24,442 nt of DNA, from the UHGV virus genome UHGV-1686243; one strand, given 5' to 3'. A model generated the notes under the pieces. That model was not told where the DNA came from, searched no databases, and saw nothing but the letters and a program-made list of their open reading frames with translations. Every line of letters starts with the position of its first letter. The stretch's first letter is position 1. Position numbers and translations under genes: made by a program. Shown here one piece after another: positions 11,387 through 21,951 of the stretch. This DNA comes from a virus.

Positions 11387-11736
11387 TTAATTTGCTGTTT
11401 CTAAATCGGAATGTATGATCTGCATCATCGACTGAAATCATCCATTGCTGAAATTTTTAGTTGATCTTCCATGTTTTCAGGCTTATATTCATGTCGTCGT
11501 AGCAAATTCTGCGACCGGGTTTAGCAGCCTGAATACGAATGCGGACAACCGCAGATATCCGATATTGCGGTATTTTTGTGTCCGTAAAACCACGTTACGC
11601 CCGAATTATGGTGGGGCGTGATGGGGAGGCTTCGGCCTGCTGGTTTCATTCGTGCCAGTCTGCTAACCCCGTCACGTCCTGCCACCCGTTTAGCAGCGGG
11701 GCGCAGGTTGTTAAACCTACGAATGAGGCCGTAACT

Positions 11737-11961
11737 ATGGTTAATGCCAATCCTTGCTCGCGCCCGGAATTTATCTGGCGTTTCCACTCCCTGCAAAAAC
11801 ACTGCGATCACTTCGCAATTGCCGCAACTGAAAAAGAAGCCCGTTCTCTGATCCCTGATCAACATGGCGTCCTGACTGGCCGTTTCTCTACTTCATCACA
11901 ACCAAACACTAATCCTTGGTATCGCAATATTACCCATCCCGGAATTGCGGAGGCACACTGA
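11737..11961 (+). CDS. 74-aa protein translationally coupled to the antirepressor gene (Icd-like position)
   Basis: RBS GAGG is 8 nt before ATG 11737. The stop overlaps the Rha-gene start (TGATG). The longer 140-aa frame upstream has no RBS and runs through the hairpin-rich leader. Confidence 0.35.
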   Translation: MVNANPCSRPEFIWRFHSLQKHCDHFAIAATEKEARSLIPDQHGVLTGRFSTSSQPNTNPWYRNITHPGIAEAH

Positions 11962-12668
11962 TGGATATCTGCATTCTTGAAAAGCCATCAATGACCAGCA
12001 TTGAGATCGCGGAGCTGGTGGGAAGTCGTCCAGATAACGTAAAAATATCAATAGAGCGCCTGGCTAAATCTGGAGTTATTCAACTTCCTGCATTGCAGGT
12101 TTTCGAAAAAATCAATAACTTAGGACTACGCCGTAGTGTCGAGGCTTACGTCTTCGAAGGCGAGCAAGGCAAACGAGACAGCATTATTGTCGTTGCGCAG
12201 CTCTCTCCGGAATTCACCGCCCGGCTGGTGGACCGCTGGCGCGAACTGGAAGAACAAGTACGCCAGCCGTTGACCGAAATAGAGATGATCGCCGCAATGG
12301 CTGCAAATGCAGTTCAGCAGCAAAAGCGGCTTCATGCTGTTGAGTCAAAGGTTAGCCAGGTCGCTGAAACCGTCGAGCAAATCAAGAAGGGCAACATGCC
12401 AGATGGCTACATTGGCTACCGCCAGCTGGCTGCGAAATGTGGCCTGACTGAAGCCAAATGCCGCAACCTGGTTAACGCTTTCCGGATTCCCACCGATACG
12501 CATGAGTTTTTAACTCCAGAGGGGGTATTGTCGCGTCGTTCCATCGTGGCCTTATCTCCCTTCATGAATGCTTTTAACCGGATGATGTCGGAGGCAGAAC
12601 ACCGAGGAAAACGCTGGTATCACCCCAAAATGGGGCAATTCCAGGTGATCGGTTGGGGAGGTGAGTGA
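11961..12668 (+). CDS. Rha-family phage regulatory protein (candidate antirepressor)
   Basis: GGAGG is 8 nt before ATG 11961. The N-terminus ...MTSIEIAELVGSRPDNVKISIERLAKSG... matches the Rha signature as recalled (TS..IAE.fGkRHDNVlrdIr.L). Confidence 0.65.
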   Translation: MDICILEKPSMTSIEIAELVGSRPDNVKISIERLAKSGVIQLPALQVFEKINNLGLRRSVEAYVFEGEQGKRDSIIVVAQLSPEFTARLVDRWRELEEQVRQPLTEIEMIAAMAANAVQQQKRLHAVESKVSQVAETVEQIKKGNMPDGYIGYRQLAAKCGLTEAKCRNLVNAFRIPTDTHEFLTPEGVLSRRSIVALSPFMNAFNRMMSEAEHRGKRWYHPKMGQFQVIGWGGE

Positions 12669-12865
12669 TGGACATCATGCAGGCGGTAAAAAAAATCAGG
12701 GAAGGACAGGCTGAAGTGTGCCGCCGTAAAGCATGGAGTATTGATGTATGGGCATGGCCTGATAATTACTCTACTACCGGATGGTTTTGTATTAATGGAC
12801 TCAAGATCCGGGAAGTTTATTTATCGACGGCTGATATAGTCGGTAATGATTGGATCGTGACTTGA
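12668..12865 (+). CDS. DUF2829-like small protein (candidate Tad2-type anti-Thoeris sponge)
   Basis: ATG overlaps the upstream stop, with RBS GGGGAGG. The 65-aa protein has N-terminal ...AVKKIREGQAEVCRRKAW... and C-terminal ...DIVGNDWIVT, which fit the recalled DUF2829 pattern (G..v.RkgW ... DWe.). A paralog-like ORF lies at 21751. Confidence 0.4.
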   Translation: MDIMQAVKKIREGQAEVCRRKAWSIDVWAWPDNYSTTGWFCINGLKIREVYLSTADIVGNDWIVT

Positions 12866-12873
12866 AGCGTGAT

Positions 12874-12898
12874 GCCCCGGCCTGGCCGGGGCTTTTTT
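12874..12898 (+). terminator. intrinsic terminator ending the antirepressor operon
   Basis: GCCCCGG-cctgg-CCGGGGC followed by TTTTTT. It abuts the stop of the convergent minus-strand gene. Confidence 0.65.
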
Positions 12899-13383
12899 CA
12901 TGCCTCATTAGTTGAGGTTGCTGCGTCTCCGACTGGTAACAGAGCGGTATTGCGTGGTTCGCCAGCAGGCCAGCGATAGCCAGACACTCTTGATGTTGGG
13001 AATGCGCGAATATTAACCGCATCCCCCTGGTTCCCACCCAAGACAAGCAGATCGCCATTGGCGCGGCGTCCGACAACGAAGCCTACGTGCCCACCGCCTA
13101 CGCGGGTAAATACAACGATACATCCGTATGCCGGTGTATCTAATTTCTCGCCCCAATCCAGATAGGATTTTGCCGACTCAAATCTTGTTGAGCGGATGCC
13201 TACACGTTCCAGCATTGCACCGACAAATGCTGCGCACCACGGCGTTTCATCGTCTTTAATTCCGCCGCGCTTGATGTCGCGCCAGAACTGAACGATTTCA
13301 GGGTTGTGTTTAGCGCCTTTTATTTCAGTCAAGCCAATGTGCTTACGGGCTTCAATTAGCCAGCGAGGTTCAATGTTTGCCAT
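12898..13383 (-). CDS. CHAP / NlpC-P60-like peptidoglycan hydrolase (TIGR02594-like phage protein)
   Basis: Minus-strand ATG at 13383 with GGGAGA RBS. Cys/His motifs ...ETPWCAAFVGAM... and ...GGGHVGFVVGR... are typical of this phage-associated peptidase family. Confidence 0.6.
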   Translation of the reverse strand: MANIEPRWLIEARKHIGLTEIKGAKHNPEIVQFWRDIKRGGIKDDETPWCAAFVGAMLERVGIRSTRFESAKSYLDWGEKLDTPAYGCIVVFTRVGGGHVGFVVGRRANGDLLVLGGNQGDAVNIRAFPTSRVSGYRWPAGEPRNTALLPVGDAATSTNEA

Positions 13384-13534
13384 ATTTTTCTCCCGGTCAT
13401 GGGTTAATAAGTAGGCAAACTATGGGGAGTATGTGATTTTGACGGTAGTATCGTCCCCCTGAAAATAACATTCTCCATACCCTCTCAACCGTACCGCATA
13501 GCGGAATTTTTTACGGTTTAGAGGGGGAAATCCT

Positions 13535-20407: not shown

Positions 20408-20842
20408 ATGACGACATTAATTGACACTGTAAAACCGACGGAATCCTACCTTGAGGACATTTTGCCGCAGGCGCTCAATGGCAGGAGTGAAGAGGCGTTT
20501 CTGGATGCATATCTGAATGGCATGGTGGAAAGGCTGAAACGAGATCCACAGCTTTATCACCTTTATGGGCCGTGGTGGCCTGCGCTTAAAACGTTATTGC
20601 TGGAGCGCGGCGACATATCATTTGGACAAGTTGTAGATAGTGATGTGGCAGAGATCTACAAAATGAGTCGCCCGGCGCTTACGGTTTTGGCTGGGCATCT
20701 GTATTCGAGCGATCGCCTGGAAAATGACGCGGTATACAATCCTGTTCATGCTCTGGAAGTCGCACCTTATGCCGATGATACAGAGCCATACGTGTACACA
20801 AGTTACGACGAGTCTATAGAGAAATATCGAATTATGGGGTAG
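20408..20842 (+). CDS. hypothetical protein (144 aa)
   Basis: ATG start. A GGCCCC-aact-GGGGCC hairpin sits between the darB stop and this start. No recognisable motif. Confidence 0.5.
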   Translation: MTTLIDTVKPTESYLEDILPQALNGRSEEAFLDAYLNGMVERLKRDPQLYHLYGPWWPALKTLLLERGDISFGQVVDSDVAEIYKMSRPALTVLAGHLYSSDRLENDAVYNPVHALEVAPYADDTEPYVYTSYDESIEKYRIMG

Positions 20843-21241: not shown

Positions 21242-21736
21242 TTGTTGTTATTATTTCGCATATTTACTATCAATGGGTGTGTTAGAAAAATAGCGCGAAA
21301 GAGAAGGCGTCGCAGTGAATATTCTGAAACATCCCCACATGCCGCAGCTCTTAGAGAACTGGAGAAAAACCCAGATCTAATCAAAAGGAACCATGAGCAT
21401 TACGAGCAGGTTCGCGTCCTGGACTGGATGTATCGCAATATGCGTTATGTGTATGAGCATACTCACGCCACTCCAAACGGTGGCCTGCGAGGCATAAGGA
21501 CGGCAATAAAAATGGTGGCAGAGGGCCAAAAGAAGGGATATCCCGATCTTTCTATAGACCTTGCTTGTGGGGGATACCACGGAATGCGCATTGAGATGAA
21601 ACATGGGAGAAATCGCCTGACTCCCGAACAACTCGTCTGGATGACTCGCCTCACAGAAGCCGGTTACTACTGCTTTGAGGCGCGCAGTGCCGCTGAAGCC
21701 ATAAAAGCTATCACGGAGTATGTTTGTCTTGATTAA
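21242..21736 (+). CDS. VRR-NUC domain nuclease (PD-(D/E)xK superfamily)
   Basis: C-terminal ~100 aa ...GYPDLSIDLACGGYHGMRIEMKHGRNRLTPEQLVWMTRLTEAGYYCFEARSAAEAIKAITEY fit the VRR-NUC signature. The start is uncertain: there is no in-frame ATG or GTG before the domain, only TTG 21242/21245, and a motif copy lies inside the predicted N-terminus. Confidence 0.55.
   Translation: MLLLFRIFTINGCVRKIARKRRRRSEYSETSPHAAALRELEKNPDLIKRNHEHYEQVRVLDWMYRNMRYVYEHTHATPNGGLRGIRTAIKMVAEGQKKGYPDLSIDLACGGYHGMRIEMKHGRNRLTPEQLVWMTRLTEAGYYCFEARSAAEAIKAITEYVCLD
21279..21289 (+). promoter_or_regulatory. GTGTTAGAAAA motif copy upstream of / within the 5' end of the VRR-NUC frame
   Basis: Exact motif match. Confidence 0.3.
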
Positions 21737-21750
21737 ACGGAGAAATCGTT

Positions 21751-21951
21751 TTGCGTTTACTTAACGTGGCAGAACTTATCCCTGCAGGAACTAATGCTAT
21801 CGCTCGTCGTCGCTCATGGCAGCAGGCACTATGTATTGAGATCTCGAAACGTATCAATGGAAGTTTTGAAGCTCGCAATATTGTTACTGGCGATAAGGTT
21901 CACATAACCCCGGAAAGTGCAAGCGCTGATGATTGGGAGTTTGTACATTGA
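21751..21951 (+). CDS. DUF2829-like small protein, second copy (candidate Tad2-type sponge)
   Basis: TTG start with GGAG 8 nt upstream. The 66-aa protein has N-terminal ...PAGTNAIARRRSWQ... and C-terminal ...SADDWEFVH, the same pattern as the ORF at 12668. Confidence 0.35.
   Translation: MRLLNVAELIPAGTNAIARRRSWQQALCIEISKRINGSFEARNIVTGDKVHITPESASADDWEFVH

Follow-up and report, generated by a model that had tools for sequence, protein, structure and literature searches.

Results and Discussion

The virus genome UHGV-1686243, a stretch of 24,442 nucleotides (nt) that is called the window throughout, is a D6-like (P1-family) phage-plasmid and carries at positions 12668–12865 a gene for a protein of 65 amino acids (aa), here named orf17 as its counterpart in Escherichia phage D6. 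Judged from its predicted structure, the orf17 product is clearly a minimal and highly diverged member of the Tad2/DUF2829 fold at the superfamily level, and its closest non-trivial homologue is the C-terminal 65-residue segment of a longer, fused Rha-type antirepressor (38–43% identity). We see about an even chance that orf17 is a detached C-terminal Tad2-fold module of such an antirepressor, accessory to the antirepressor Ant encoded next to it and possibly redundant or decaying. An antirepressor accessory is more likely than the anti-Thoeris sponge proposed in an initial annotation of this DNA, because most of the ligand-contact residues of Tad2 have been lost. The reality of the gene, the anatomy of its operon, the fold, the homology to the antirepressor C-terminus, the loss of ligand contacts and the contrast in selection were all computed here, and the gene architecture suggests a role of the domain for the antirepressor.

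The orf17 gene and its operon

The open reading frame (ORF) runs from ATG to TGA and encodes MDIMQAVKKIREGQAEVCRRKAWSIDVWAWPDNYSTTGWFCINGLKIREVYLSTADIVGNDWIVT, in exact agreement with the frame and length given in the initial annotation. The C-terminal D-W-I-V pattern reported there was found at residues 61–64. The N-terminal pattern was confirmed for C-R-R-K-A-W, and the preceding G-x-x-[AV]-x-C proved to be one register off, the actual sequence being G13-Q-A-E-V-C-R-R-K-A-W23, with A and V two and four residues after the glycine. The ORF is not a chance one, since it matches phrog_7385 (unknown function) with an expectation value (E) of 1.5e-46, is annotated beside the gene of a Rha-family regulator in plasmids of Escherichia, Salmonella and Shigella, about 120 in number, corresponds to D6 orf17, labelled 'hypothetical protein', and occurs with its exact sequence on 559 contigs. 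NCBIfam contained no model for orf17 or Ant.

The gene is genuine and translationally coupled to ant: the ant stop codon TGA (12666–12668) and the orf17 start codon ATG (12668–12670) share one base (TGATG), and a GGAGG precedes the start by 6 nt. The initial annotation had proposed that orf17 is coupled to and co-transcribed with the antirepressor gene; this arrangement, and the position of both genes between the C4/a1b1 elements and the terminator, are in full agreement with it. A programmed frameshift generating an Ant–orf17 fusion was considered and ruled out, as a TGA at 12662–12664 precedes the start in the orf17 frame and no slippery site was found.

By its sequence features orf17 closes an operon of the immI type that is controlled by C4 RNA and has the order a1b1, C4, icd, Rha-type ant, orf17 and terminator (Table 1). 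This assignment follows from the one-base overlaps, which also join icd (11737–11961) to ant (11961–12668), from the C4 RNA and its a1b1 target upstream, and from the terminator downstream, which is strong and begins 9 nt past the orf17 stop codon. The candidate promoter lies at a position that we take to agree with P51 of P1 immI; promoter-like patterns were as numerous in this region, in the same consensus scan, as expected from shuffled sequence. Ant of the window scored 29.7 bits with HTH_24 and 21.4 bits, under the cut-off, with Phage_pRha.

The operon resembles P1 immI (P51, c4, icd, ant1/ant2) in its C4 RNA with a1b1 targets, its icd gene and its translationally coupled antirepressor. 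It differs in that the antirepressor is of the Rha/Roi type rather than P1 Ant, and in that the Tad2-fold gene has no P1 counterpart; the similarity to P1 ends after icd. In P1, too, antirepressor activity involves more than one polypeptide, namely Ant1 and Ant2. No match to the P1 C1 operator consensus ATTGCTCTAATAAATTT with three or fewer mismatches was found anywhere in the window; the D6 operator may differ from this consensus, because the D6 repressor is a different and longer protein than P1 C1. The P1 C1 inactivator Coi (69 aa) was also compared with orf17 as a candidate analogue and was found to be unrelated (hhalign P = 0.42).

Split, fused and stand-alone forms of the domain

Three architectures of the orf17-type domain were found, each behind a C4 RNA. 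In the split form, that of the window, icd is followed by ant (235 aa) and orf17. In the fused form (D6 orf83–orf82; representative protein P0009, phrog_63), icd is followed by one Rha antirepressor of 313 aa. The orf17 family profile (A1) matched residues 233–313 of P0009 with E = 1.4e-43. P0009 matched phrog_63 over positions 124–431 and phrog_7385 over residues 254–312, and Ant of the window, which is without the C-terminal domain of its 313-aa paralogue, matched phrog_63 over positions 123–358 (E = 3e-48). The two proteins are colinear through ...RWYHPKMG; Ant then terminates at ...RWYHPKMGQFQVIGWGGE, the exact point where the fused protein runs on (...RWYHPKMGMFQAIHHPVPESPKDNLSLHT...) via a linker into the domain. 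The D6 orf82-type antirepressor thus shares with the window its N-terminal 235 residues, which match Ant, and the icd–ant order behind a C4 RNA; it differs in being a single polypeptide with a linker 6 residues longer, encoded about 54 kb distant in D6, beyond the window. D6 has both modules, with a C4 RNA at each. Split and fused modules also occur together in most plasmids and in several IMG/VR contigs, and some plasmids have the split copy only.

The stand-alone form was found in D6-related elements of roughly 90 kb, one of them from Raoultella, in which a domain protein of 96 or 68 aa starts about 45–52 nt past C4. In one of these elements (L050) no ORF other than that of the Tad2-fold protein stands between C4 and the terminator, and in another (L051) the protein is encoded by the first ORF after C4. 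The 96-aa and 68-aa proteins (P0010 and P0011) belong to the orf17 subfamily, matching phrog_7385 with E of about 4e-10 and keeping the CRR...W.G.W..P...D...DW core, and they lie directly behind a1b1 and C4; unlike the operon of the window, theirs contain neither icd nor a Rha antirepressor. Since all three architectures stand behind C4, the constant partner of the domain is the C4-controlled immunity switch and not a defence neighbourhood.

Some further observations were made on these loci. The immI-like units of L050 (4752–5291) and L051 (4746–5207) consist of a1b1, C4 RNA and the stand-alone Tad2-fold protein only; they are insertions, flanked by a homologue of D6 orf53 on one side and one of the spanin-like orf55 on the other. 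The second C4-controlled icd–ant module (L004, 2837–4258, equivalent to D6 74022–75442) has a leader that matches Rfam isrK with 59–63 bits, a match that connects the module with the isrK-orf45-anrP locus of Gifsy-1 (studied in PMC4825925). In the IncY plasmid NZ_CP139341.1 (L003, 3953–4198), an 81-aa 'transcriptional regulator' adjoining a Cre-like recombinase and IS26 corresponds to the linker and Tad2-fold domain of a truncated fused antirepressor, and its inherited name is misleading.

Relation to the Tad2 fold

The AlphaFold2 model of orf17 (pLDDT 80.1, pTM 0.59) starts with a helix, which is followed by four strands, a second and short helix and one final strand, and the elements of the Tad2 fold (alpha1, an antiparallel beta-sheet, a short C-terminal helix and a last strand) are all present in it. 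When the model was compared with the PDB using Foldseek, the best 20 matches were all Tad2 chains, with template-modelling (TM) scores of 0.71–0.76; in BFVD the top matches were nearly all DUF2829/Tad2-like proteins, some of only 60–66 aa. The matched Tad2 structures were released from 2023 on, after the AlphaFold2 training cut-off, and the agreement is for that reason not recall of those entries. The structural comparison suggested in the initial annotation therefore bore out a Tad2-like fold, and its DUF2829 assignment stood at the level of the fold and not at that of the profile score.

Taken alone, the sequence evidence for DUF2829/Tad2 membership is weak. The hidden Markov model (HMM) search proposed initially, against PF11195 (DUF2829), gave orf17 only 14.6 bits (E = 0.05), which is not significant and is under the gathering score of 25, and the common allele P0001 16.5 bits, also under that score; both alignments run end to end, covering positions 1–72 of 73. 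The 68-aa P0011 obtained 14.0 bits, and the fused and IncY copies had no match to PF11195 at E ≤ 1. UniRef names the exact orf17 sequence 'DUF2829 domain-containing protein'. Two profiles were used beside A1, namely a subfamily profile of 7 sequences (A2) and a profile of 56 canonical Tad2 homologues built around SPO1 gp34.65 (A3). When orf17, the A1 and A2 profiles and P0010 were searched against all PDB chains, no Tad2 chain was found at E ≤ 10, so that the Tad2 link is visible only to structure and profile methods. The hhalign comparison of A2 with A3 lends some support, being single and pre-planned (P = 2.7e-4 over 62 columns, with both proteins aligned end to end), but its probability of 41.8% is below usual confidence. 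A narrow HMM of SPO1-like Tad2 homologues ranked orf17 first among the six-frame fragments of the window, yet with E = 0.12.

The orf17 subfamily is tiny, since an exhaustive HMMER scan of 1.84 billion representative proteins with the family profile matched seven proteins only; searches of species-representative genomes with A2 and P0010 gave no matches. P0010, encoded on a Raoultella ornithinolytica plasmid, bridges the subfamily and DUF2829, as it was matched by the family profile (E = 1.7e-9) and scores 23.9 bits on PF11195 (E = 6.2e-5).

The gcADPR site and canonical Tad2 proteins

According to the Tad2 papers, gcADPR is contacted in SPO1 Tad2 by W25, N26, W73 and D79, plus I63, T65, D67, H71, S76 and T78, and the W21A/N22A and S90A/T92A/D93A mutants of HgmTad2 no longer bind; absence of the gcADPR site is predicted for only about 1% of the Tad2 homologues. 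In the hhalign register, with SPO1 numbering, 3 of the 10 contact residues are kept in orf17 (W25 as W23, S76 as S53 and D79 as D56), and S53 is not constant, being A or T in orf17 paralogues. The remaining contact positions have changed (N26 to S24, I63 to F40, T65 to I42, D67 to G44, H71 to R48, W73 to V50 and T78 to A55). A similar picture was obtained for the residues invariant in canonical Tad2 (A10, R22, W25, N26, G27, K28, M30, T65, S76, Q77, D79, L81, D84 and W85): half of the 14 are kept, as A6, R20, W23, S53, D56, D61 and W62, while N26, G27, K28, M30, T65 and Q77 are replaced, L81 is V and the WNGK loop is gone.

The architecture of the protein differs as well. Tad2 is a homotetramer built from alpha2/beta2 dimers, an arrangement that creates the pockets, and its beta2–beta3 insertion contributes alpha2 to the dimer interface and in HgmTad2 also contains the cyclic-dinucleotide pocket, which in the HgmTad2/SptTad2 type is formed by an insertion domain of 35–41 residues (Tad2 papers). 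The insertion of about 20 residues with alpha2 is missing from orf17, where about 6 residues stand between those strands; this argues against an assembly identical to that of Tad2. The 35–41-residue domain is likewise not present in orf17, the whole protein having 65 aa. Compared with the Tad2 proteins (SPO1 gp34.65, ModTad2, HgmTad2/AcrIIA7; PF11195) of 89–104 aa, orf17 has WSID for WNGK, V for W73 and STAD for SQTD (PED in the paralogues), and whereas Tad2 is a stand-alone anti-defence gene, the orf17 domain sits in an antirepressor operon or is fused within it.

A canonical member of the family is found elsewhere in D6. The 146-aa orf114 product is a DUF2829/Tad2-like protein (PF11195, 81.3 bits) that keeps WNG and PW..PS.GD.LA.DW; it has the fold family and the phage group in common with orf17, adjoins a dUTPase and lies outside any immI operon. 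In the window itself, the HMM of SPO1-like Tad2 homologues found no canonical Tad2 among the six-frame fragments. A preprint of 2025 (10.1101/2025.09.12.675607) reports a 'Tad2 AcrIIA7' match for 93% of the D6-like phage-plasmids and 56% of the P1-like ones; this match is most likely of the orf114 type, because P1 is without orf17.

Selection and natural alleles

Selection was compared between 26 split and 20 fused copies. The fused domain, in which 20 variable codons differ only synonymously and 11 change the amino acid, is under purifying selection: the ratio of nonsynonymous to synonymous rates (dN/dS) was 0.10 and neutrality was rejected (p = 3e-7). In the free-standing D6-lineage copy no purifying selection was detectable, the 5 synonymous and 17 amino-acid-changing variable codons (22 in total, a small sample) giving a dN/dS of 0.79, to which neutrality fits (p = 0.80). 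The codon patterns of the two forms differ by Fisher's test (p = 0.005), and the neighbouring genes had dN/dS values of 0.04 (icd), 0.20 (ant) and 0.06 (CHAP gene). The free copy may be under relaxed constraint, or under constraint mixed with diversification.

Split and fused domains have diverged by a dN of 0.64, with dS saturated, and by 60% at the protein level. The core residues C18, R20, W23, W28, P31, D56, D61 and W62 are intact across this divergence and in all abundant alleles. Some orf17 alleles alter deeply conserved residues (G13E, R19C), and three variants (P0002, P0003 and L030) are frameshifted.

The A8 run in orf17 codons 7–10 has natural A7 variants (L030 and the Salmonella protein P0146) that are frame-shifted; they are annotated from a GTG start at 12661, with the N-terminus MSDGHHAGG..., and keep the remaining domain. 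The run may be a slippage-prone switch or mere mutational noise.

Among D6-like copies, mean dS was 0.21–0.25 for icd and ant as against 0.05 for orf17 and 0.02–0.03 for the CHAP gene in most pairs. This sharp fall of dS suggests a recombination boundary at or near the ant/orf17 junction.

Genomic surroundings

Region 11500–13500 of the window shares 95% identity with Escherichia phage D6 and 99.7% with non-mobilizable E. coli plasmids of about 90 kb. The gene order in D6 is icd-like orf19, 'anti-repressor Ant' orf18, orf17, a convergent CHAP/TIGR02594 hydrolase gene and a darB-like gene. The immI operon is embedded in a Dar anti-restriction and morphogenesis region, since it is followed by CHAP, DarB-like, Ulx-like and VRR-NUC genes (Table 1).

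Table 1. Features of the immI-type operon and of the genes downstream of it, in window positions.
Feature	Position	Strand	Basis or remark
Sigma-70-like promoter candidate, TTGATC-17-TATATT	11461–11489	+	consensus scan; pattern match only
a1/b1 target element of C4 antisense RNA	11483–11535	+	Rfam RF03163, 52.2 bits (gathering score 46.7), E = 9.6e-11
C4 antisense RNA gene (immI regulator)	11604–11689	+	Rfam RF01695, 71.9 bits (gathering score 45), E = 1.8e-12, full length 1–87/87
icd-like gene, 74 aa, first protein gene of the operon	11737–11961	+	labelled Icd-like cell division inhibitor in D6 and plasmids
ant, Rha/Roi-type antirepressor, 235 aa	11961–12668	+	phrog_63 'anti-repressor Ant'; D6 orf18 annotated likewise
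Shine-Dalgarno GGAGG for orf17	12657–12661	+	within the final ant codons, 6 nt ahead of ATG
orf17, 65-aa predicted Tad2-fold (DUF2829-like) protein	12668–12865	+	
A8 homopolymer, orf17 codons 7–10	12688–12695	+	read from sequence; natural A7 variants known
Intrinsic terminator, 8-bp all-GC stem, 3-nt loop, T6	12874–12898	+	GCCCCGGCCTGGCCGGGGC then TTTTTT
CHAP/TIGR02594 peptidoglycan hydrolase gene, 161 aa	12898–13383	-	convergent; ends 6 nt beyond the operon terminator hairpin
DarB-like methylase-helicase, 2278 aa	13535–20371	+	
Ulx-like gene	20408–20842		
VRR-NUC (pmgM-like) gene	21242–21736		

The CHAP and darB genes of the window are separated by a 150-nt spacer only (13384–13534), whereas some relatives have an extra gene there; in plasmid NZ_CP085065.1 (L006, 2409–2906) the added gene encodes a carboxypeptidase-like regulatory domain protein.

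An ORF of 66 aa (21751–21951, plus strand), which corresponds to D6 orf11 and to phrog_7206 (unknown function), is flanked by the pmgM-like VRR-NUC gene and a pmgR-like gene. It carries G-x-x-A-x-A-R-R-R-S-W ... A-D-D-W-E-F-V, ranks second in the window for the orf17-family HMM (E = 9e-4) and aligned with the family in hhalign with P = 0.0012 over 59 columns. Pfam gave no match for this ORF, its match to canonical Tad2 spans 7 columns only, and its single-sequence AlphaFold2 model (pLDDT 54.6) was too poor for use. It may be a second, still more diverged domain of the orf17 kind.

Interpretation

If orf17 is a detached module accessory to Ant, it would be made in step (stoichiometrically) with Ant through the stop-start coupling, and would act by protein–protein contacts, for example in Ant self-association or repressor recognition; sequestration of gcADPR is the less likely role. 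The detached D6-lineage copy could be partly redundant with the fused paralogue, or decaying, because it evolves without detectable purifying selection. Several points weigh against this account. It is only gene architecture that suggests an accessory role towards Ant or the repressor, and control of the operon by the repressor is likewise only probable, by analogy with P1, the P1-type C1 operator consensus being absent near the promoter. The AlphaFold2 model was built on an alignment of 6 sequences. W23 and D56, equivalent to Tad2 W25 and D79, and the family-specific C-R-R/W-x-W-P surface are conserved, so that a small-molecule ligand is possible. Finally, the near-neutral recent evolution fits a non-functional remnant, or a diversifying anti-defence protein, equally well.

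A remnant would have arisen when a stop and restart appeared in the linker of a once-fused antirepressor, leaving a detached domain that is translated, unneeded and drifting. The neutral codon pattern of the free copy, with a dN/dS far from those of icd, ant and the CHAP gene, is what such drift would leave, as are the radical changes G13E and R19C and the frameshifted P0002, P0003 and L030, and most carriers also have the fused paralogue. We nevertheless consider a relic unlikely: nearly all of the approximately 120 plasmids and 18 of 19 IMG/VR copies have an intact ORF, GGAGG and TGATG junction, the core residues have been kept in all abundant alleles and across the divergence from the fused form, some plasmids have only the split copy, and the neutral estimate comes from just 22 variable codons.

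Canonical Tad2-type counter-defence, in which an oligomer would sequester the Thoeris signal (gcADPR or His-ADPR) after early expression from immI on infection or induction, appears highly improbable. The Tad2-like fold, the match of W23, D56 and S53 to the contact residues W25, D79 and S76, the early derepressed expression known from P1 immI, which would suit an anti-defence gene, and the quick protein evolution common among such genes speak for it. Set against these are the replacement of N26, T65, D67, W73 and T78 and of the invariant G27, K28 and Q77, when pocket mutants of HgmTad2 lose binding and site-less homologues are predicted to be rare, together with the absent alpha2-bearing insertion of the dimer interface, the subthreshold Pfam score and the canonical Tad2 homologue that D6 already has. 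Moreover, a pocket for an invariant small molecule should stay under purifying selection, and none was seen in the free copy. The Tad2-type function of the initial annotation is thus unsupported rather than disproved, the contact and invariant residues and the insertion having gone, the domain being homologous to the C-terminus of a Rha-type antirepressor and D6 having a separate canonical Tad2 homologue. It also seems quite improbable that orf17 is a sponge or sensor for some other nucleotide signal, with a re-tooled pocket (C-R-R, W23, W28, W30-P31, D56, D61-W62) serving counter-defence or ligand input to the antirepressor. The fold family is known for nucleotide-derived ligands bound in two independent pockets, the family-specific invariant residues are aromatic and basic, and the domain is under C4 control in three architectures; no positive sign of any ligand was found, however, the HgmTad2 cyclic-dinucleotide pocket requires the 35–41-residue insertion that orf17 does not have, and selection on the free copy is relaxed.

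Beyond the accessory role, we see a slim chance that in phage-plasmids of the D6 group the effector of the immI switch is the Tad2-fold domain itself, either as a minimal antirepressor that inactivates the prophage repressor or as a sensor through which a host nucleotide, immune signal or second messenger, would bear on the lysis–lysogeny decision. The version with a minimal antirepressor is suggested by the Raoultella-type elements, where the domain is the only C4-controlled ORF. If this were true, the control of prophage induction would have taken over a fold whose only known use to date is that of a signal sponge.

Implications

Screens and name transfer label any DUF2829 protein 'Tad2, anti-Thoeris', and the orf17 subfamily keeps the fold and not the gcADPR pocket; the practical lesson is one of caution against annotating orf17 as an anti-Thoeris gene. 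Clinical E. coli and Salmonella commonly carry D6-type phage-plasmids. Should the domain work with Ant, or as an antirepressor, the Tad2 fold would have wider uses and orf17 would offer a handle on the exit of these phage-plasmids from lysogeny; if it binds a signal molecule, immune signalling would be linked to prophage induction.

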